Shown here: positions 32,677 to 43,438 of the stretch, in pieces
Layout of the letters: every line of letters begins with the position of its first letter
Numbering within the stretch: position 1 is the stretch's first letter
Virus record (IMG/VR): IMGVR_UViG_3300009187_000021
Location: 1 to 64,000 of that record
DNA: 64,000 nucleotides
Source of the DNA: a virus
Reading direction: 5' to 3' (one strand)
Notes under the pieces: model-generated
Told to the model about the DNA's origin: nothing
Seen by the model: the letters and a program-made list of their open reading frames with translations, nothing else
Database searches by the model: none
Made by a program: the position numbers and the translations under genes

Positions 32677-34560
32677 TCAAGAGGGATTCTTTAATTTCTC
32701 TATTTCTTCTTTTAAAGATGTTACCTGAGAATTTAATTCTTTGATGGATTCAATCAATAATCCTACCATGTTTCCATATGCGACAGTATACATGCCACTG
32801 TGAGTTGTAGACACAGCTTCTGGTAGAACATTAATCAATTCTTGTGCAATCACACCAGTCTGAGAACCAACATCAATATCAGTTCTTTCAAAAGTATATC
32901 CAGATATCTTATTCACTTTTTCTAGAGCATTTTCAATAACTTTGATATTTTTTTTCAGTCTCGCGTCAGAGTATGCAGTTACGTTGCCGCCGCAAGTTAA
33001 GTCTGTTCCATTATAAGTTAGTCCAGAACCAGTTGCTAGTGCTGATCCAGAAGATGCATACACAACACCACCAGAAGTAAATGAACTTAGTCCAGTACCA
33101 CCTTGGTTTGTCGGTACTGTTCCAGAAGATGTTAACTTCTTGTTTCCATCCGTGAATACTGGTTTGGTTGCAGTGAGTGTTGCAGCAGTAATATCACCGG
33201 TGATTACTGCCTCAGATCCAACATATAGTTTTTTAATAATGCCAACGCCACCACCAACAACTAATGCACCAGTGCTAGTTGAAGATGAATCTGTTGCAGA
33301 GAAAATTGTTGCATTAGCACCAACGTTTATAAAACTGTCAGTAGAGATGCTTCCGTTTGAATATATTCTCTTAGCAACGCCAAGACCGCCTTTTACTACT
33401 ACTGCACCAACAATTGGACTTGCTGCATCTGTAGTATTATTTGCATAAATAACACCGTTTGATGAGATGCTTCCAGTAACATTCAATCTCAGTGCAACTC
33501 CAAGACCGCCCTTAGTCTGTATAGCACCAGTAGAATCACTGAAAGATTCTGCTGCATAATTTACATAGAGTGGACCGGAAGAACTTATAGATCCATCTGA
33601 ATGTATACTAGTACCTGCAATTAAATTAGCAACACCAAGACCACCAGCAACTACTGCTGCACCATTATTGTATGAAGTTGATTCTGTTGTGTCATTTACC
33701 TTGAATATGCCGCCAACATTCAACCTTTTAGTAATACCAACTCCACCAGCAGTTACTATTGCACCCGTTGATACAGATGTTGATTCATTTGTGTTAGCAA
33801 AATATGCTGAACCAGTTACTGCTAAATTTGCACCAAGTGTTGTGTTGCCAGAAACAGTTAATCTTTGACCAATATCTACGTTTGCAGAAACTATCATCGA
33901 GTTTGAGATGTTAACTTTACCGCCAAGTTGAATCTCAGCAGTTGATTGTACCTTCATAGTGCCACCAATATAGATATCACCACCGATACCCATACCACCA
34001 GTGACAACAAATGCACCAGAACTAATTGATGTCGAATCTCTACTGTTAGGAATTACAACTGTACCAGATGCATCAAGATAAATGTCATCACTTGTGTCGT
34101 TAGTAACTTGAATGTGTAACTTTCTTGCATCACCAGCAGTCGCATAGTACTTAATGTTTGCAGAATCGCCAGTCGTTCCGCCCAGAAATGAAATACCATT
34201 TGATCCAGATCCAAAAGTTGGCATAATCATACCGCCAACTAGAAGATTACCAAGAATGTTTGCAGTACCATTAGCTAAGAAACTAGTTCCTGTATTCGAA
34301 AGATAAAGTTGTCTTTGTACAGTTAAATCATTCTGAACTGTTGCAGATGATCCAGAACCGGCAACAGTTAAGACACCCTGTACGATTGCATCATTCTTGA
34401 CCAGTAGACCCGTGCCAGAACTATTAATTGTGAACGTGCCAGAATCTTTGATGTAGTTGTTCGCACCAATATCATTGGTTTCTGCCAGAACTTTGTTCGT
34501 CGTGACAACCCAATCACCAAAAGTATTGGCATATCCTAATGGTACTACTTGATTAGACAT
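32677..34560 (-). CDS. Tail fibre with C-terminal intramolecular chaperone (Peptidase_S74-like)
   Basis: Repeated S....GA.V..GG.G motifs; GNVTAYSDARLKKNI...GVIAQEL..VLPEAV...VAYGNMVGLLIESIKEL. Confidence 0.85.
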   Translation of the reverse strand: MSNQVVPLGYANTFGDWVVTTNKVLAETNDIGANNYIKDSGTFTINSSGTGLLVKNDAIVQGVLTVAGSGSSATVQNDLTVQRQLYLSNTGTSFLANGTANILGNLLVGGMIMPTFGSGSNGISFLGGTTGDSANIKYYATAGDARKLHIQVTNDTSDDIYLDASGTVVIPNSRDSTSISSGAFVVTGGMGIGGDIYIGGTMKVQSTAEIQLGGKVNISNSMIVSANVDIGQRLTVSGNTTLGANLAVTGSAYFANTNESTSVSTGAIVTAGGVGITKRLNVGGIFKVNDTTESTSYNNGAAVVAGGLGVANLIAGTSIHSDGSISSSGPLYVNYAAESFSDSTGAIQTKGGLGVALRLNVTGSISSNGVIYANNTTDAASPIVGAVVVKGGLGVAKRIYSNGSISTDSFINVGANATIFSATDSSSTSTGALVVGGGVGIIKKLYVGSEAVITGDITAATLTATKPVFTDGNKKLTSSGTVPTNQGGTGLSSFTSGGVVYASSGSALATGSGLTYNGTDLTCGGNVTAYSDARLKKNIKVIENALEKVNKISGYTFERTDIDVGSQTGVIAQELINVLPEAVSTTHSGMYTVAYGNMVGLLIESIKELNSQVTSLKEEIEKLKNPS

Positions 34561-34786
34561 TTTTATCCTTGATTAATTCTGCTAGTAATTGTTTAATCTC
34601 TGACATATCACTCTTGATCGTTGAAAGTTCATCATTTAATTTATTTATTTCTTGTTTCTGAGTCTTCAACAATCTGACCTTCAAGTAGTATTCATTTCTT
34701 TCCGTATAGTCAGTGCTTGAGAGTTGCATTGTTCTAATGTCTCTGACAAAATTAGCACCCTCAATCTTGACTAAGTTTTCAGACAT
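34553..34786 (-). CDS. Small coiled-coil protein
   Basis: Start reassigned to MSENLVKIEG at 34786; FVRD motif and heptad-rich C-terminus INKLNDELSTIKSDMSEIKQLL. Confidence 0.65.
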   Translation of the reverse strand: MSENLVKIEGANFVRDIRTMQLSSTDYTERNEYYLKVRLLKTQKQEINKLNDELSTIKSDMSEIKQLLAELIKDKNV

Positions 34787-34787
34787 A

Positions 34788-36446
34788 TCAGATATCACCC
34801 GTAGGTAATGCAATAACTCTCAAATCTTTGACAAATGGTGAGAAAGTCGAATCTGCCGATGCCATTACAATTTTAATGGCATATTTGTAGAAGTCATTAA
34901 ATATTAATCCAGTCTTTGGATTAGTATATGATACATAGTTTTGTGAAACACCAGCAGTACCTGGTGCCAATTCAAATTCAATCAAATCGTCTCTTGTTGC
35001 AGAATATCTAATAGATTTACTAATCGAAGTCATTTGTTGCCAATTCGCTTCTTCAATAATCAGAGTATCATCTCTCGAAATAATCTTATAGTAAACAAAG
35101 ATCTTTGTATTCGTTGGGCGATATGCAGTAAGGAATACACGTAGATCACCAGAATCATTACCGGCAGCGAGAGTGACTGGATATGTTTGATATCTAACTA
35201 GTCCATTACCACCAGAGACTGATGTTTCACCATATACTACTACGTTTGCAGGAGTAGTGTTTGCGGCAGAGATCGAGATTGTTGGATTCTTAGAGTATCC
35301 AGAACCAGGAGTAGTGACATACACACTAGTTAATACACCTGATGTAATATAACCCTCAACGATTGCCTGAACACCATCTGCTTCGTTTGGCGCCGACACA
35401 GTGATATTGCCCGATATCTTTCCGTTAGCGCCGCTTAAATATCCTCCACCTCCACCAGTAATAGTAATTATATTATTTGATATAGGCATATTATTAATAA
35501 TGTTCTTGATCACAAAGATATTAGTGCCATCATCAGAAATAACCGGTGAAACTCTTTCATCTTCAGTTGTTAATTTTGCATTTAAATAAAAAGAATTTCT
35601 TGTATCGTTAAGAGTAAGAACTCGTTTGCCGTTGTTATCATTCAAGTAGATGTTATTGACAGCTCGAGTTGCATAATCACCAGGATTTACAATCTTAGAA
35701 GCTTCAAGTAAGAATGTAGTATTCAACATTGTTTGCGATGTGTATACAATATTTGTTTTCTCTGGTTTATGGTGTGATGTTGAAAGATTGTATTGATCGT
35801 ATACAACATTGGCTGAATACTTTTTGTTCGCACTCGATTCAACGATGTTAGTTTTTTGTAATCCATCAGAAACAATAAACTTTAATGTTGGTGAAACAGA
35901 GGTATCAAAACTACATCTGTTGATTACAAACATTAAGTCTCTTGTTTGATCCGCATCATAGTTAATACCATTCTGAGATTCAAACAATGTTCCAATGTAA
36001 GGACTTTTTGCAATCTTAGATAGTGTTGTTGGTGTAGGATCTGTCGATAAATCTTTGACAGAAGATGCCAATGGTGTATCATTCTGTTGGGCGCACCACA
36101 AATTATAACCAGATGAATTGGTTCTTAGAACGAATGCATACAATTCACCAGATTTCACATACACTGGTGCTGGGAATTTAAATTCCGTGTATGTCGTTGA
36201 GTCGATATACTGTGGTGAAGTTGAAACCTTAATGTCAACTGGATATAAAACAACCTCAGAAAAGTCCAACATCTTTGCAGTTGGATATGCACTTTGAGTT
36301 GTTACGATAGCAAGATGCACTGGAATCTGAACAGTTGGTTTCGTTTTGAAGAACAATCGAATAGAACTTAGAAATACACCGTACGGATAAGATGCATCAT
36401 CAATAATAAATGATTGTGCTAACGGATCTAAGATAGTTATTGCCAT
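34788..36446 (-). CDS. C-terminal third of a DUF4815/VrlC-like virion structural protein
   Basis: DPLAQSF...GVFLSSIRLFFKTKP...TEFKFPAPVY...GTLFESQNG...SPVI...KDLRVIAL. Confidence 0.75.
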   Translation of the reverse strand: MAITILDPLAQSFIIDDASYPYGVFLSSIRLFFKTKPTVQIPVHLAIVTTQSAYPTAKMLDFSEVVLYPVDIKVSTSPQYIDSTTYTEFKFPAPVYVKSGELYAFVLRTNSSGYNLWCAQQNDTPLASSVKDLSTDPTPTTLSKIAKSPYIGTLFESQNGINYDADQTRDLMFVINRCSFDTSVSPTLKFIVSDGLQKTNIVESSANKKYSANVVYDQYNLSTSHHKPEKTNIVYTSQTMLNTTFLLEASKIVNPGDYATRAVNNIYLNDNNGKRVLTLNDTRNSFYLNAKLTTEDERVSPVISDDGTNIFVIKNIINNMPISNNIITITGGGGGYLSGANGKISGNITVSAPNEADGVQAIVEGYITSGVLTSVYVTTPGSGYSKNPTISISAANTTPANVVVYGETSVSGGNGLVRYQTYPVTLAAGNDSGDLRVFLTAYRPTNTKIFVYYKIISRDDTLIIEEANWQQMTSISKSIRYSATRDDLIEFELAPGTAGVSQNYVSYTNPKTGLIFNDFYKYAIKIVMASADSTFSPFVKDLRVIALPTGDI

Positions 36447-37967
36447 TTAAAATAGTTCCATATTCGTTCGTTCTGTTGACTTAACATTGTGTGAAATCAA
36501 TCCTTCTGTGATATATGTATGCGCTTGATCAATCTCAAATTTAATGACTTCACCGTCACCAATGTCTGTAATAGAAACAATTTCTTTACTACTCAGATCA
36601 TAAATTACATCATAGTTCATTCCCATTACAGATTCACCAACGGAAATATCACACACTTTTTTCCAAGAATCATCAGACATTAAAAATTTATGCGTAGAAG
36701 AGACTTTAAGTTTTTTACCATTAGCAAATTCAATTTCAACTTTAGGTTGAATCATTCTTTCTGCTTCTAGAATCTTGAATGTTCCAGGTTCTCTTGAGTG
36801 TTCGTGAATCGTTATAACTTTATCGCCAACATTTAAATCGCCGGCACGAACCCAATGTGAATCTTCACAGAAAATTAGTGTGTCTGGATCTGGACAACCA
36901 CCACCATATGAAACATCGTTAATAGGAACTAATGTACCATTAGTGATAGCATCGAGTGCACCATCTGATTGACGATATATTTCAGTTGCTGACGTGGTTG
37001 TTCCTCGACTTGTTGTTGTCGTAGAAGCACCAGTACCAGCAGAGAATTGTGAATCAGCAGCCTTATCAAATGTACCAGAAGCAAAATAAGTTGCCTGTGC
37101 ATATGTTGTTTCAGATCCTAATTGATTCACATAATTACCGGTGGTTGGATCAGTGCCAACATATCTGTTATCAAGTCTAAAGATTCTGTTACCTGTTGGG
37201 AAAATACCACCACGAAGATAGAATACACCGGAACATTTACCGATTTCATTACTTGATGGTTTTCCAATAGAATATGTACTCTGACCAGCAATAAAAGATA
37301 GTCCACCTGCACTTAATGTTGCAACTTTTGTTGTTCCATTATATGCAGTAATTGTTCTGACAGGATAATCCGCAACAACTTCATCTGTGTATGTGGTGTC
37401 GGATGAAGTATTTGTTGAAACAGTAATGATGTTAAACGTATTACCATTGTAGTAATTATTTACAGAAGATGCTCTGCCATTCAGTGTAACGTATTGTGTA
37501 GATGTATTTGATACAGCAACTTTACCAGATAGATGACCGAAAGCAGAAATAGTACCAGAATCGGTAGAGTTTACATATACACCATATGAATCATAGTATG
37601 CATTATAAAGAGTACCACCCACAACTAAATCGGTAGGAATATTATCAAAGTCATCAATGATGTAAAGTCTCATATCAACTATAGTACCAGAACCTTTCTT
37701 ATATACGTCAATAATTGTTCCGGTCTTGATAAAACTAGAATTTGTTGGTTTGTATCCAACGACATCGCCGACTTTAAAATTACCAGATGTGTTTGTAACA
37801 TCGATGGTATTTGGTCTTCTGATTAATCGTGTGACGCGATACTCATCAAACCATGCATCAAGTTCTGTGTCAGAAAGTAAATTCGACACATTAAAAGTGA
37901 TTTGTTTCTCACGGCAGTATGGAACTACTGGTGGTATTGTTGCAGTTGTCGTTATAGTTGTTGCCAT
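36447..37967 (-). CDS. Middle part of the DUF4815/VrlC-like protein, with a C-terminal Hint domain
   Basis: VPYCREKQITF...AWFD and GVFYL...F.TG.RIFRL...AQATYFASG; Hint domain at the end. Confidence 0.72.
   Translation of the reverse strand: MATTITTTATIPPVVPYCREKQITFNVSNLLSDTELDAWFDEYRVTRLIRRPNTIDVTNTSGNFKVGDVVGYKPTNSSFIKTGTIIDVYKKGSGTIVDMRLYIIDDFDNIPTDLVVGGTLYNAYYDSYGVYVNSTDSGTISAFGHLSGKVAVSNTSTQYVTLNGRASSVNNYYNGNTFNIITVSTNTSSDTTYTDEVVADYPVRTITAYNGTTKVATLSAGGLSFIAGQSTYSIGKPSSNEIGKCSGVFYLRGGIFPTGNRIFRLDNRYVGTDPTTGNYVNQLGSETTYAQATYFASGTFDKAADSQFSAGTGASTTTTSRGTTTSATEIYRQSDGALDAITNGTLVPINDVSYGGGCPDPDTLIFCEDSHWVRAGDLNVGDKVITIHEHSREPGTFKILEAERMIQPKVEIEFANGKKLKVSSTHKFLMSDDSWKKVCDISVGESVMGMNYDVIYDLSSKEIVSITDIGDGEVIKFEIDQAHTYITEGLISHNVKSTERTNMELF
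36486..36896 (-). other. Hint (intein-like) domain, 137 aa, no endonuclease
   Basis: C1-PDPDTLI..., DLNVGDKV, block B-like LKVSSTHKFL, block G-like HTYITEGLISHN; the +1 residue is Val. Confidence 0.85.
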
Positions 37968-37977
37968 TTTTTATCTC

Positions 37978-40900
37978 TTAAAAATCAATTACTTGTTCAA
38001 ATTGGACATACATAACATCACCGTAGTATGCAATTCTAAGTGCCATACATCCTATATCAAGTGTGTTTGTTGCGTCATAATACAATGTGTGATTGCCAGC
38101 TGTAACATATATAGAGGTCGCGTATACATTAGAAGGTGCATACACCGGTGTGTTGAAACCGTTAGTTGTTGTTACACCACCAGCATAAGCCATTCCAGAT
38201 GAACCAAAAACATTAGTGCCATCTAGTGTTACGGTTCCAGTATCATCAACTGAACCTTCAAATAGATAGTATCCAGATTTAGTAAATGTGACGGTATATG
38301 TTCTGTTGAATGTTTTATTTGTTCTACCTAAATCTGCATATCCCCAAACACCAAATTCATTTCTAAATTGACCAGCATCTCCCTGTTGTGAAGTGTATAC
38401 CGCAGCACTTCCAGTTGGTGGATTATTGCTCGTGAATATTGCATTAATTGATGTGCCAGGAATGGGACCAACCTTGATATACTCAGGTGGAGGTATATCT
38501 TTAGTCACAGGACCTTGACTTGATGGAGGAGTATATACATCTATCCAGTTATCAATAGCTGGAGAAATTGTCATCAGACCTTCGACGTTTCTGGTAGTGA
38601 AAGAGTTGATGTTAACTTCGCGTGATGCTAATTTCTGAACAACCAATTCTTTCTGTGTGTATGGTAGAGTGAAAACGTTTGTTGTTCCAACTTTGTGTGG
38701 TTGATAGAACAACTCAGAAACTGCCTGTTCAACTGAAATAGGTTTAGCAACAACAGGATCATAATCTTTATTGTAAAGATCGAAAGATTCTGTTGTAGTT
38801 GCAGGAGATAAAGTTCCGTTTGTCGTATCAATTTGTGCAAAGTAACTATTATTATAAGTATCTGCGACAGAGAAAGTTGTGAAGTTGTCAACAAGAATAC
38901 CATTCTTGAATCGATTCAAACCAAAGTTATCTTGGATTTGTAAAGAAGTTGCAGACTGTTCAAGAAGATTTAATGATGTGTAATACTCTAGGTTCTCAAT
39001 TCTTTCATTCAGTCCAGAGATATCTTTCATCAACCATGTCCTATGTGTGATAGGAATGATCGATAGATTTGGAATAACACCAGGATACTCGCCAGGAATG
39101 TATGCTGTGTATGGATCATACACCAGTTTTGCAAGTATAAGACTATTCGATTCTTCTGGTGGATATGCAGGTGTCAACGATGGTACACCTTGAACCAATT
39201 TGATAACAGAATCTTTAGTGAGAACTAATAGATCTTTTCTACCCAAATAGTAGTAGTAATCTGAAGTAAACGAAGACTCATCTTCTGGTAACAATGAACC
39301 ATAGAAATTACTTGTCGTAGGAGTTACAGAATATTTAAATAAGTTTATATCAGATTGAACATTCCTAACTTGTGGTCTGAAATCAATACAATCTCTTAAT
39401 TGATATGTTGTGCCGCCAGAAGATGTGAATGTTCCAATCTCTGCATAATTTTCATTTGAATATGAATTAATATTAAAGTATCCGTCACCGCCAGAATGTT
39501 CATAGTAATCAAATAGAATCCACAATCTAGTTGGAACTGGATAACCAGGTTTCAATGAAATCGATGCGTGACCATAGTATGTGTCACGTTGACCATTATC
39601 AAACGAGAAGTTATTAGTGACATCTTTATTAGTATCAGTCAACATCGATAGTGTCGGTGTTGCTGCACCAGGATCAACAATCTTGACGATTTTCTTAACG
39701 TCAGACACATAAAGAGATTGTGGAAGTCCAGATGTGACGATTGCAGAACTACTGTTAACGTAGATTTGACCCTTAGATAAATCTATTAATGTGTTAGTGT
39801 TAACAATCCCAGAAGCACCAACGATACCTAATCCATAGGTATTTGCAGTAGCTAAAGTCTTAGTCTTTCTGACATAACTTGTGTTGTCAGCACCAATAAT
39901 ATTCATGCGTGAGTAAATCGATGCAGTAAATGGTAACAAATCTGGTGCAGAGAATGTTGCTGTAGTCTTCTGTGAATTGACAACAACAGTTCTATTAAGT
40001 CCTGCGATTGCATTTCCAACAAAAGGAATAATCTGACCATTAGTCAAGTTTGCATTCGACTGTTTATCAGTACATACGACAATAAAGTTTTGTTTAATCG
40101 AATCGATGCTTTCAGCAGAACCAGTTCTAATAAAGTTCAATACAGATTGTGCAGCAACATCAATCGTAAGTGCTTTGTAAACACCTGTAGTAGTTGTTGT
40201 GAATGCTTGACCTCGATAAACTTGTGTAGAAACATATGATGCATCTGATACAGAAGATACATATGGATTACCAAGTTGAAAAACTAATTCTGCATCGCCC
40301 GCGTCTGCAACAAATGTATCACCAGTCGAAAGAGAACCAACCTTACTTCTGTTGTCGATCTGTGCAGAACCATAAACAGTAAATGGTGCAGATCCACCAA
40401 CTTTTGCAAAACTTTCAATGTCTTTTACTGCACTCTTGATAGAGAATTTTGAAGCGTTTGTTGGCAATACAGTAAAGACTGGTGAAACTTTCAATATTTT
40501 AATTGTTGAGTTTGCAAAATATGTTTCAATAGTTCTAGTTTGCCCAGCACCAGGACCGCTATCGATAGATAGAATCATGCCACCATATAAGTTTGCCACA
40601 CGGGTGCTAAATGTTGCGAGTGTATTATTATTAACAGAAACAGTGTTCGCATTAGCAAACTCAACATTTCCAGATAAAGATTTAACCGTTAAATCTGATA
40701 TGTGTGCTTTGTACACATAAGATGTTGTATCAGAATCAGTTCCGCTGGTATTATAACGAAGATAACGTAATCGACCAGTCGCAGCAAGAGTTGAATTATA
40801 TGTCATCGTATTCGTAGTTGTAACCATTGCTGTATTACAAATATGAAAATCGATTGCTTGTGATGTTGTCGTATCAATGTAGTCGCCGTTGGCGCCTGCA

Positions 40901-42054
40901 AGTGTATTCACATAGAAGTAATTACCATATGCAGGAGTAACAATATTGTTATTAATGTTTGCAGTTGTTCTTGCTCTATCGGCATCTAGTTTTAGAGTGC
41001 TTTGATTTTCTGTTCTGTAACCATGAACATACGCAAGACCAGGGCCAACATTAAGAATATACTTGTCAGTTCCTGAAGTGAAAGTATTCTTCGAAGGAAT
41101 TATACTAAAATTCTTGACAACAAAGTCACCATTAGTTTCAAATGTTCTCTTTGCAAAGTAGTCATCAATCTGTGAATATGACGTAGAATTAACTTGACGA
41201 ATGATTTCACCAGACTCAACTCGTGCCAATTCAATAAAGTTCGAATCAGCACCTGCACCATCAGTTGACTTCTTAGTTGTCAGAGTTAAATTGATTGTAT
41301 ATCTGTCTGCGCCTGGTCCTTGAAAGTTCGATGAACCTAATGCTGGATCCAACAATGTTGAATCTGTAACATAGTCTGTGACATACTCAACAATATCTAG
41401 ACCAATTCTAGCGTTTGGAGTATTATCATACTTGTTTAGAATGATTGTCTGTGGTAACACATCGACAAAGTTACCAATGGAATACTTGTTGTATGTACCA
41501 TCATCATTTTCTTTAGACGATGTTGAGTAACCATTGACAACATAAAATATGCCATTTGCAACTGACGCAATCGAAGATTTACCATTTGCATTTGATGTAA
41601 CAGTTGTTGCAACAGTACCATTCTCTATTGTGTCTAGTATTAAAACATTAGCACTGTTTGTAAACTTAGTCGAAGAAGAATATGTTAGAATTAGAGTAGG
41701 AGGATCGCCATCAGCTACACCCTCTTCAGTTGCAACAACATAAGCTATAACTTTACCTGTAGCGTCCGTGATATATTGATTTTTAAAATCAGATGCAACG
41801 ATTTCTGAACCAGCATACTCATAGTTTAGTTTTAGATATTCGACATTAGTGTCAATCGTTAACTTACCGCCTTTGATTGGCGTGTTCTGTGTGAAGAAGT
41901 GATCCGCAAAATTAGAGATTTGATTCTGAAGAATCGTCTGCGCCTGAGTTAACTCTCTTGCTTGAACTGCACGACCTGGTCTAAAAAGAATCTTGTGATA
42001 ATTATTACTTGGATCAAAATCGTCATAATAGGGATCCACATTAAAATTTAACAT
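37978..42054 (-). CDS. DUF4815/VrlC-like large virion structural protein (N-terminal part), with a C-terminal PA14-like module
   Basis: FNVDPYYDDFD...ILFRPGRAVQARELTQAQTILQNQI; PGADRY; RIENLEYYTSLNLLE; RFKNGILVDNF. Confidence 0.82.
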   Translation of the reverse strand: MLNFNVDPYYDDFDPSNNYHKILFRPGRAVQARELTQAQTILQNQISNFADHFFTQNTPIKGGKLTIDTNVEYLKLNYEYAGSEIVASDFKNQYITDATGKVIAYVVATEEGVADGDPPTLILTYSSSTKFTNSANVLILDTIENGTVATTVTSNANGKSSIASVANGIFYVVNGYSTSSKENDDGTYNKYSIGNFVDVLPQTIILNKYDNTPNARIGLDIVEYVTDYVTDSTLLDPALGSSNFQGPGADRYTINLTLTTKKSTDGAGADSNFIELARVESGEIIRQVNSTSYSQIDDYFAKRTFETNGDFVVKNFSIIPSKNTFTSGTDKYILNVGPGLAYVHGYRTENQSTLKLDADRARTTANINNNIVTPAYGNYFYVNTLAGANGDYIDTTTSQAIDFHICNTAMVTTTNTMTYNSTLAATGRLRYLRYNTSGTDSDTTSYVYKAHISDLTVKSLSGNVEFANANTVSVNNNTLATFSTRVANLYGGMILSIDSGPGAGQTRTIETYFANSTIKILKVSPVFTVLPTNASKFSIKSAVKDIESFAKVGGSAPFTVYGSAQIDNRSKVGSLSTGDTFVADAGDAELVFQLGNPYVSSVSDASYVSTQVYRGQAFTTTTTGVYKALTIDVAAQSVLNFIRTGSAESIDSIKQNFIVVCTDKQSNANLTNGQIIPFVGNAIAGLNRTVVVNSQKTTATFSAPDLLPFTASIYSRMNIIGADNTSYVRKTKTLATANTYGLGIVGASGIVNTNTLIDLSKGQIYVNSSSAIVTSGLPQSLYVSDVKKIVKIVDPGAATPTLSMLTDTNKDVTNNFSFDNGQRDTYYGHASISLKPGYPVPTRLWILFDYYEHSGGDGYFNINSYSNENYAEIGTFTSSGGTTYQLRDCIDFRPQVRNVQSDINLFKYSVTPTTSNFYGSLLPEDESSFTSDYYYYLGRKDLLVLTKDSVIKLVQGVPSLTPAYPPEESNSLILAKLVYDPYTAYIPGEYPGVIPNLSIIPITHRTWLMKDISGLNERIENLEYYTSLNLLEQSATSLQIQDNFGLNRFKNGILVDNFTTFSVADTYNNSYFAQIDTTNGTLSPATTTESFDLYNKDYDPVVAKPISVEQAVSELFYQPHKVGTTNVFTLPYTQKELVVQKLASREVNINSFTTRNVEGLMTISPAIDNWIDVYTPPSSQGPVTKDIPPPEYIKVGPIPGTSINAIFTSNNPPTGSAAVYTSQQGDAGQFRNEFGVWGYADLGRTNKTFNRTYTVTFTKSGYYLFEGSVDDTGTVTLDGTNVFGSSGMAYAGGVTTTNGFNTPVYAPSNVYATSIYVTAGNHTLYYDATNTLDIGCMALRIAYYGDVMYVQFEQVIDF

Positions 42055-42058
42055 TCTT

Positions 42059-43438
42059 CTAATATCCTAAAACTAGTTTAAATTGTTCAGATCCATCCGC
42101 ACTTCTTGTGACAGCTTGTCTATTTTCAACGTACATCAAATATCCAGAGAATGGAACAAAGAGTGTATCATTCTTTTGTAGTGCGACTCTTGCTGTTTTA
42201 GAAGAATCACCATAAAATATTTGATTTAAGTTTGCAGTACCTTGATTATTTAGTAACTTTAATTGATTCGTTGATGTGTCGAAACTTAATGTCGTTGCAG
42301 TAAAGTATGCAGTGGCCAGTAATCCGTTGTTAGATTGAAACACAGTTTCATCTTGATTATATGTTCCAGATCCAGTCGAAACCAGATAGTCGGTTGATAG
42401 TCTGTATGTCGTTGAGTTTGCGATTATCTTATCTGATCCAAAGTAAACATACGGATTTGAGATTAGACCGATTTGTCTAAAGTCAATGTCTGTTGGTATG
42501 GCACCAGATTCAGACTTATCAAAAGATGCAGTCACCATAATGTGTCTGCAACCTAATTCAGAAATTGGATTGAATCCATGTCCACCAATAGAAGAAGGAT
42601 ACACTACGGCAGTTGCATTAGATCCATTTGCAGATGAGATTGTGACGTTAGCAAAAGTATAGTTCGAACCAGTATTCGAAACTGTAATATCTGTAACTAC
42701 ACCGAGAGAGATTGTTGCATTTCCAGAAGCATATTTTCCATCACCCGTGATAGTTACAAAGACATCAACGTTTGCTGGATCATATCCAGAACCACCATTA
42801 GTCACGTTAATAACATCAATCGAACCAGATCCAGCAAAAGTGTCAACTGCATTCGGAACTGACTGTGGTAAAGGAACTGGCATCCATGTGTCATCTAGAA
42901 ACTTAATCTTGTTAGCATATGTAATCGTGTACATATACTTCCATTTGTATCCGTCACTACTTTGAAAGACATTGTTTGTATTAAATGTACCGGGTTCGAA
43001 GTATGGTTCTTTTGAAGTGATACCACCATTATTATTCCACAGGCACTTGAATACTTGATCAAATTTATTCTTGGCATAGAATCTTTTCGTAATAGTTCCG
43101 TTTGGATCACGTTGAAACATGTCAATATCATCACGATAGTAATCGTATACTTCACCTAAATTCCAATCGATTCTCTCTACAACCGGTACCATGTCATTTG
43201 AAGTAATCTTCTTCGCAATGAACATGTTTTTGTAAAGATCTTTGATGTATTTCTGTGTCTGCAATGGTGCAGGTGGATTAGTCTCAGTTGTCCACGTTTG
43301 CACCCTAGAAAGAAAACAATACATTGAATTCAAATACTCACCAGTCGAAGGAAGAATCACCGACGATGAATAATACGTTGACGTAGAATGAAATACGCCA
43401 GAGTTGTATGTTAAAAGACCTACGTTTGCTGATGCCAT
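42059..43438 (-). CDS. gp8: Baseplate wedge subunit gp8
   Basis: VVERIDW..G..YD.Y; VFKCLWNNNG; DGYKWKYMYTI; GHGFNPISELG; FRQIGLISNP; SGYLMYVENRQAVTRSADGSEQFKLVL. Confidence 0.88.
   Translation of the reverse strand: MASANVGLLTYNSGVFHSTSTYYSSSVILPSTGEYLNSMYCFLSRVQTWTTETNPPAPLQTQKYIKDLYKNMFIAKKITSNDMVPVVERIDWNLGEVYDYYRDDIDMFQRDPNGTITKRFYAKNKFDQVFKCLWNNNGGITSKEPYFEPGTFNTNNVFQSSDGYKWKYMYTITYANKIKFLDDTWMPVPLPQSVPNAVDTFAGSGSIDVINVTNGGSGYDPANVDVFVTITGDGKYASGNATISLGVVTDITVSNTGSNYTFANVTISSANGSNATAVVYPSSIGGHGFNPISELGCRHIMVTASFDKSESGAIPTDIDFRQIGLISNPYVYFGSDKIIANSTTYRLSTDYLVSTGSGTYNQDETVFQSNNGLLATAYFTATTLSFDTSTNQLKLLNNQGTANLNQIFYGDSSKTARVALQKNDTLFVPFSGYLMYVENRQAVTRSADGSEQFKLVLGY

Follow-up and report, generated by a model that had tools for sequence, protein, structure and literature searches.

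A Hint domain without a splicing nucleophile at the junction of a three-way split, VrlC-type baseplate protein in an IMG/VR virus record

The window analysed here, the whole stretch of 64,000 nucleotides (nt) that forms positions 1 to 64,000 of IMG/VR virus record IMGVR_UViG_3300009187_000021 (a contig of 88.9 kb), carries on its minus strand an open reading frame (ORF; 36447..37967) of 506 amino acids (aa), which ends in a compact Hint domain. Known forms of the Hint domain are the inteins of replication enzymes, the bacterial intein-like (BIL) domains of surface and toxin proteins in bacteria, and the processing domains of Hedgehog proteins; the present locus raises the question of what such a domain does at the C-terminus of a phage structural protein. 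The first-pass annotation of this DNA had described a 137-aa Hint domain that follows Gly-Gly-Gly, starts with Cys, ends with His-Asn, is trailed by only a short tail and lacks an endonuclease, and the coordinates, the Pfam match and the predicted fold all agree with that description. The analysis identifies the ORF by homology as the middle piece of the VrlC baseplate protein, split in three in this marine T4-like phage of a pelagimyophage-like lineage, with the Hint probably acting as an autoprocessing module on its new C-terminus.

The Hint domain extends from Cys358 to Asn494 (36486..36896, minus strand), as evident from profile and Protein Data Bank (PDB) sequence matches, fold, family-invariant residues and the ratio of non-synonymous to synonymous substitution (dN/dS). 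Residues 355-357 are GGG (36897-36905), the codon of Cys358 is at 36894-36896, Ser423..His426 of block B at 36690-36701 and His493-Asn494 at 36486-36491. The reading across the start is N-D-V-S-Y-G-G-G and then C-P-D-P-D-T-L-I-F, while that across the end is G-L-I-S-H-N, followed by the tail VKSTERTNMELF and the stop. Intein blocks A (CPDPDTLIF), B (S423-x-x-H426), F (AHTY, 482-485) and G (SHN, 492-494) are recognisable, and a split intein was rejected since all four lie in one ORF. The length of 137 aa leaves no room for a homing endonuclease.

Scanned alone, the Hint scores 41.7 bits (E 1.3e-10) with Pfam Intein_splicing, above the gathering score of 35.8, and the whole 506-aa protein scores 34.9 bits. 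In phmmer comparison with solved mini-inteins, NpuDnaB (4o1r) was matched with E 2.6e-5 and Spl DnaX (7cfv) with E 1.9e-4; the match to the C. thermocellum BIL (2lwy) is weaker, with E 0.019. The AlphaFold2 model of the Hint, built from 45 family sequences, has a predicted local distance difference test (pLDDT) value of 91.3 and a predicted template modelling (pTM) score of 0.84. Foldseek with this model gave NpuDnaB with E 2.2e-11 and template modelling (TM) scores of 0.80/0.87, Tetrahymena BUBL BIL2 (6y75) as the 6th match (E 3.6e-10), 2lwy as the 19th and Hedgehog 1at0 as the 31st. The Hint assignment is well beyond chance.

Whether this domain can splice was judged from its flanks. With a Hint fold containing blocks A, B, F and G, a Cys at position 1 and a His-Asn end, it resembles a class 1 intein, and canonical class 1 mini-inteins (NpuDnaB, Ssp DnaB, Spl DnaX), which share the same blocks, Cys1 and His-Asn, are its best sequence and structure matches. 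However, it differs from them in having Val495 at +1 instead of Cys, Ser or Thr, an unconstrained C-extein of 12 aa, and Lys476 at the F-block position where Asp is usual. The exteins are also not rejoined, as the reading frame stops after the 12 unconstrained residues and the former C-extein now forms a gene of its own with its own ATG. Canonical splicing, which the first-pass annotation had already excluded, is thus impossible for this domain.

The tail (36450..36485, minus strand) consists of Val495 at +1, Lys496 at +2 (36480-36482) and a remainder that the alignment of homologues indicates to be unconstrained; its length among the close homologues aligned is 4-12 aa. A later alternative intein end inside the tail was considered and rejected, since the tail is not conserved. 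The survey of the +1 residue that had been called for was run on 16 close homologues, where the residue is V, Q or K and never a splicing nucleophile. The catalytic residues, whose degeneration in close relatives would have spoken against autoprocessing, are intact in every close homologue aligned.

The same pattern holds far beyond these relatives. An exhaustive phmmer search with the Hint over 1.84 billion representatives retrieved 899 clusters at E ≤ 1e-3, of which 202 are at E ≤ 1e-10, and residue statistics were taken from the best 150 of the 899. In these, position 1 is Cys in 141/141 and the terminal His-Asn is present in 147/148. The +1 residue (n = 147) is K in 75, V in 18, I in 12, L in 9, A in 8, S in 5 and T in 3, so that Ser or Thr accounts for 8/147 and Cys for 0/147. 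A Lys occurs at +1 or +2 in 135 of 145 (93%), and the -1 residue is Gly in 69 of 140. The residues after the Asn (n = 148) number 20 or fewer in 54, 21-60 in 29 and more in 65.

Family-invariant positions are C358, P361, G381-D382, T386-x-H388-E389, S423-x-x-H426-K-F, W435, A482-H-T-Y485 and S492-H-N494, and the family signature may be written as Gly-rich -1 to -3, C-P/V-D-P, T-x-H-E, AHTY and SHN, then Lys at +1/+2. The T-x-H-E motif (T386-x-H388-E389, window 36800-36812) is kept in at least 90% of the family and was not recognised as a canonical intein block.

The family also occurs on other hosts, namely unrelated IMG/VR proteins of 1345-1386 aa (loci L006 and L007), which end GGGGG|C...SHN|K plus 8-14 aa, and a group of proteins of about 1000 aa. 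The gene after the Hint-terminated protein in these two unrelated viral contigs (L006 6531-7964 and L007 6470-7174) opens with a shared motif, MANKILKRTSFGLIRTNPRL and MSAILKRTSFGLLRTNPKL, respectively. One metagenomic protein of 1784 aa (P0056) carries two tandem C-terminal Hints of the family, separated only by the spacer K-L-D-S (VLSHN|KLDS|CPTPD), and has the final tail AKAPQ. A related-locus search with P0041, another family member, returned no viral locus.

The identity of the protein that carries the Hint was then read from its neighbourhood. The window holds a T4-like baseplate module in the order gp25, gp6, gp7, fibre and gp8, followed by three fragments A, B and C, of which the Hint-bearing ORF is B, and thereafter by the gene for a small virion protein (PHROG 473) and by a fibre gene whose product bears an S74 chaperone domain. 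The gp8-like baseplate wedge gene (42059..43438; PHROG 438, E 6.6e-87), upstream of the VrlC pieces, is the synteny anchor. Fragment A (37978..42054) has 1358 aa and matches Pfam DUF4815 with E 2.1e-53. The structural domain of fragment B (residues 1-357, 36897..37967), recognised by its match to a fused protein of IMG/VR locus L004, ends in a variable linker and Gly355-Gly357. Fragment C (34788..36446) has 552 aa, starts MAITIL-DPLAQSF and is matched in L004, the Ochrobactrum phage vB_OspM_OC and HTVC008M. The small virion structural protein (34553..34813, 86 aa; PHROG 473, E 3.4e-13) follows VrlC in relatives too, standing in the same position in the Ochrobactrum phage and HTVC008M. All the features given here with coordinates lie on the minus strand. 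The gp6 is nearest to those of the Pelagibacter phages HTVC008M and Mosig and the Methylophilales phage Melnitz, with 39-40% identity.

That A, B and C together make up one protein is first hinted at by the PHROG 358 profile (2056 positions), whose positions 5-1115 match A and whose positions 1421-1584 match C. Direct comparison with fused relatives, in which VrlC is one polypeptide of 1,942-2,119 aa, confirms it. The single-chain protein of the Ochrobactrum phage (1942 aa), located after gp7 and gp8, is colinear with fragment A over its residues 14-1123, weakly with fragment B over 1214-1249, and with fragment C over 1384-1940. The 2119-aa ORF of L004 matches residues 14-298 of B with its residues 1253-1528 (E 3e-16) and residues 7-548 of C with its residues 1600-2117 (E 5e-76). 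The VrlC of HTVC008M (gp057, 2001 aa) is likewise colinear with A, matches C over 1477-1999, and is a single chain without a Hint, as is the VrlC of locus L011.

The literature describes VrlC as belonging to the baseplate in cyano- and pelagimyophages as well as in A511-like phages (PMC7029224, PMC4621102). The colinearity, together with the place between gp8 and the small virion protein and fibres, assigns the host protein to VrlC/DUF4815, the order gp8 then VrlC being common to HTVC008M and the Ochrobactrum phage. Hence the earlier description of the ORF as a virion protein holds by homology, its N-terminal domain being the VrlC/DUF4815 middle segment. Megablast of the region against cultured phages gave no match, and tblastn of fragment B against 50,697 cultured phage records retrieved only true inteins in actinophage terminases, with 23-29% identity.

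Comparison of the linkers defines where exactly the Hint sits. In the fused relatives the B-equivalent segment passes via a low-complexity linker directly into the conserved start of the C segment, which reads DLGGGTGGDGGGDGGA and then DPLAQTFFVDE in L004, GSGGERGGGP and then DPVAQTFLID in the Ochrobactrum phage, and QQIQNNP and then DPLAQTFSVDE in HTVC008M. In the window, the Hint comes directly after DVSYGGG, the 12-aa tail and the stop come next, and fragment C then starts MAITIL|DPLAQSFIIDD. This places the Hint precisely at the former B/C junction. The proposal that the next gene is tied to the function of the Hint thus stands in so far as the domain lies at the precise junction into the product of that gene; ligation to this product has no direct support, and the Lys of the tail, shared across the family, would be a nearer acceptor.

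The ATG of fragment C directly abuts the TAA stop of fragment B (36447..36449, minus strand) and shares its frame. Of the three loci in which this arrangement was examined, the window and L010 (93% identical) show the in-frame TAA-ATG abutment, while L002 keeps B and C in the same frame but has an 18-nt spacer with a second in-frame TAA. The abutting in-frame stop-start is thus not conserved. Readthrough of the stop codon would produce a B-Hint-tail-C polyprotein for processing in cis by the Hint, a scheme in line with the shared frame in all three loci. It is nevertheless hardly credible, as the second TAA in L002 rules out readthrough fusion as a conserved mechanism, the tail varies in length among homologues, and a TAA next to an ATG reflects ordinary translational coupling; a signal for readthrough was neither looked for nor seen.

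Many of the short tails in the family have a weak x-K-h-h-D-P motif in common, as in P0044 (AKVIDPLA), P0041 (IKVVDPELD), P0103 (IKVLDPDPNP) and P0059 (AKFFDPFD). This motif resembles the start of VrlC fragment C, TILDPLAQSF. P0044, ending in DPLA, may be a contig-truncated fusion of Hint and C, and the mobile unit may include a few flank residues.

Conservation within fragment B was measured on the 16 aligned close homologues. The Hint is its best conserved part, with a mean pairwise identity of 86%, the structural domain having 78%, the linker 58% and the tail 33%. On the DNA of the window, L010 and L002 (70% identical), the Nei-Gojobori dN/dS of the Hint lies at 0.06-0.07 in each of the three comparisons; the structural domain gives 0.08-0.23 and the linker 0.38-0.58, and the tail shows essentially no constraint. 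The Hint is present in 28 of the 28 homologues found at 70-99% identity. A single stop after Gly357 would delete it, yet none has lost it, and this retention argues for a selected function. The guanine-cytosine (GC) fraction of the Hint, 0.35, is the same as that of its flanks, so that composition gives no support to a recent horizontal acquisition.

These values also bear on the view that the Hint is a decaying selfish mini-intein, which once spliced B to C and became a functionless leftover when a later stop and start separated C. Its sequence and fold are closest to true mini-inteins, its position fits insertion into a once continuous protein, and the absence of a compositional anomaly agrees with such a history. 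However, a leftover would not be expected to show a dN/dS below that of the structural domain, intact catalytic residues in all close homologues aligned, and loss in none of 28 relatives where one stop codon suffices. A family of 899 clusters without a +1 nucleophile is, moreover, not a recent accident of one lineage. Decay is accordingly a very improbable explanation, and the Hint looks like a functional autoprocessing module under purifying selection and no relic. The first-pass annotation had likewise inferred autoprocessing, and the kept catalytic positions, the low dN/dS and the universal retention all point in that direction.

A metagenomic protein of 488 aa (P0029), 43% identical to fragment B, has no Hint and carries, after the same linker, a CFI-box-CTERM domain (NCBIfam NF041770, E 1.6e-13, residues 386-456), which also starts with Cys. 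Another Cys-initiated C-terminus, GGGG|CCVVATALN, is found in P0031. It seems that one end module can be exchanged for another at the new C-terminus of fragment B.

As to which known class the Hint belongs, the type A BILs (Amitai 2003; Dassa 2004; C. thermocellum 2LWY; via PMC4031507, PMC7664689) come closest in functional terms. They share the Hint fold, the Cys start, the His-Asn end and the lack of a +1 nucleophile, and they too are placed in a variable linker of a non-enzymatic, surface-type protein; here the Hint follows the least conserved linker of B in a baseplate protein. The products expected of type A BILs are mainly those of N- and C-terminal cleavage, amine-mediated splicing being possible. 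The present Hint differs from them in its phage baseplate host, in its own family signature and in lying often at the extreme C-terminus. By sequence it falls outside the characterised models, with PT-HINT (PF07591) scoring 15.3 bits against a cut-off of 27.7 and 2lwy matched only at the E value given above, the profile libraries holding no dedicated BIL-A model. Judged on these sequence features, the Hint fits the functional definition of a type A BIL, departs from the inteins in its +1 residue and in the unjoined exteins, and stands outside the characterised BIL and PT-HINT sequence models.

The other Hint classes fit less well. A Hedgehog-type Hog domain is contradicted by the 12-aa tail, the conserved Asn494 and the low rank of 1at0, and a pretoxin Hint by the absence of any domain after the Hint and by the Pfam score below cut-off. 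A literature search for Hint or BIL domains in phage tail or baseplate proteins found nothing relevant. Particular to this phage-borne Gly-Hint-Lys module is its place at a site where a VrlC gene has been divided, here into three, and a cultured phage with an undivided VrlC that lacks the Hint is available for comparison.

From these features we infer a chemistry and a role for the domain. In the folded protein, Cys358 would attack the Gly357-Cys358 peptide bond in an N-S acyl shift aided by His426 of block B, which would leave fragment B as a Gly357 thioester. Lacking a Cys, Ser or Thr after Asn494, the protein is unable to make the branched ester on which canonical splicing depends, and the thioester would be resolved mainly by hydrolysis. 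Water would thus mostly release mature B (residues 1-357), cyclisation of Asn494 would shed the short tail, and amine attack on the thioester would be a minor or alternative route. The virion would, as a net result, carry B without the Hint, which may serve as a transient C-terminal module, for instance by holding or masking the old B/C junction until assembly.

This reading, a self-removing BIL-type module whose thioester is resolved mainly by hydrolysis, is considered the probable one. BILs, which have no +1 nucleophile, cannot make the branched ester, and cleavage at the N- and C-terminus accounts for most of their products (PMC4031507, PMC7664689, PMC7765530). Type A BILs keep the His-Asn, and the alpha-amine freed by Asn cyclisation can attack the N-terminal thioester in a low-yield splicing (PMC4031507). 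The extreme C-terminal placement, with a tail of at most 20 aa in 54 of the 148 family representatives, is also counted in its favour.

Several points weigh against hydrolytic self-removal. Plain cleavage leaves unexplained the family-wide Asn494 and the Lys at +1/+2, and also why a phage keeps a domain only to discard it. The Hint sequence is nearer to true mini-inteins (4o1r) than to the characterised BIL (2lwy), and the full-length AlphaFold2 model is poor (pLDDT 49.7) and unusable outside the Hint. Moreover, the ten representatives looked up are all metagenomic.

The conserved Lys suggests another fate for the thioester, in which an amine attacks Gly357 and B is joined covalently to a peptide or partner without a ligase. 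Candidate amines in cis are the epsilon-amine of Lys496 and the alpha-amine of Val495 freed by Asn494 cyclisation; in trans, a neighbouring baseplate subunit, for instance fragment C, could offer a Lys or its N-terminus. The high frequency of Lys at +1/+2 and of Gly at -1 in the family favours such a ligation, as does the location of the Hint at the former covalent B/C junction. Type A BILs can, in addition, splice through a free alpha-amine of the C-flank (PMC4031507). However, the tail past +2 is unconstrained and 4-12 aa long, so that a product formed in cis would carry a seemingly useless peptide, and fragment C is not specifically indicated as the acceptor. On balance, ligation to a lysine or other amine is regarded as unlikely.

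The closest precedent is BUBL BIL2 of Tetrahymena (PDB 6Y75/6TMM), which is reported to form an isopeptide between a Lys epsilon-amine and the freed C-terminus, transferring a ubiquitin-like domain to other proteins (PMC8616854). It resembles the present module in the Gly-Gly-type C-terminus before the Hint, the missing +1 nucleophile and the Lys in the C-flank. That Lys is the reported isopeptide acceptor in BUBL BIL2, whereas Lys496 as acceptor here is a conjecture. The structural match has TM scores of 0.76-0.79 with a sequence identity of 13-14%, and its 6th place in the fold search, although supportive, does not discriminate, as mini-inteins score higher. The N-flank, a ubiquitin-like domain in BUBL, ends here in GGG and is a beta-rich VrlC middle segment, for which the model gave a pLDDT <50. 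A literature search for natural Hint-lysine isopeptides besides BUBL found nothing relevant. A phage counterpart of ciliate BUBL, in which the C-terminal Gly thioester is handed to its own +1/+2 Lys or to a Lys of a neighbouring subunit and the isopeptide, made without a ligase, re-staples the split baseplate protein after assembly, is a tentative idea with rather low odds.

Hints of the same family occur at the other split point of VrlC. Five family members are VrlC-like: P0143 and P0149 carry the Hint within a Pro-rich linker, just ahead of the VLPYMRSRNIEFI motif that opens the B segment, and P0180, P0156 and P0181 carry it after the A segment. Both placements correspond to the A/B junction, the other split site of the window gene. 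A FastTree phylogeny of 122 Hints places all five within one clade of 24 members (support 0.855); the window Hint lies outside it, in a clade of 53 (support 0.78). The separate clades suggest that the A/B and B/C Hints are separate insertions, with the modest support that a 137-aa alignment gives.

On the A side of this junction, fragment A has about 180 extra C-terminal residues (residues ~1181-1358, 37978-38520) without counterpart in the fused Ochrobactrum phage protein, the alignment stopping at 1180. Its residues 1219-1348 match P0059 (30% identity, E 1.7e-5), a protein of 994 aa that ends in a Gly-Hint-Lys module. Two genes downstream of the Hint ORF, the tail fibre (32677-34560, minus strand) carries a C-terminal Peptidase_S74 intramolecular chaperone domain (E 1.2e-14), so that two unrelated self-removing C-terminal modules, Hint and S74, lie within 4 kb. 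The Peptidase_S74 chaperones of tail fibres are alike in being self-removing C-terminal modules on phage tail proteins, but their fold and chemistry are unrelated, with a Ser-Lys dyad protease and no thioester.

A constrained, non-splicing Hint in phage tail and baseplate proteins, with hundreds of clusters and no cultured member among those checked, points to an unstudied step of virion maturation. The instance in the window is a good test case, as unsplit and Hint-less relatives exist in the cultured phage HTVC008M. If the domain acts by plain self-cleavage, it would be a second kind of self-removing C-terminal module in phage tail assembly, beside the S74 chaperones. If ligation to a lysine or other amine proved true, viruses would possess a natural way of ligating proteins without an enzyme, and protein engineering could make use of the compact domain of 137 aa, which has Gly at -1 and needs no Cys at +1. 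Ligation would also bear on how genetically split structural proteins hold together, and the Hints at both VrlC split points, A/B in relatives and B/C here, would then mark a general strategy of split gene and covalent protein.

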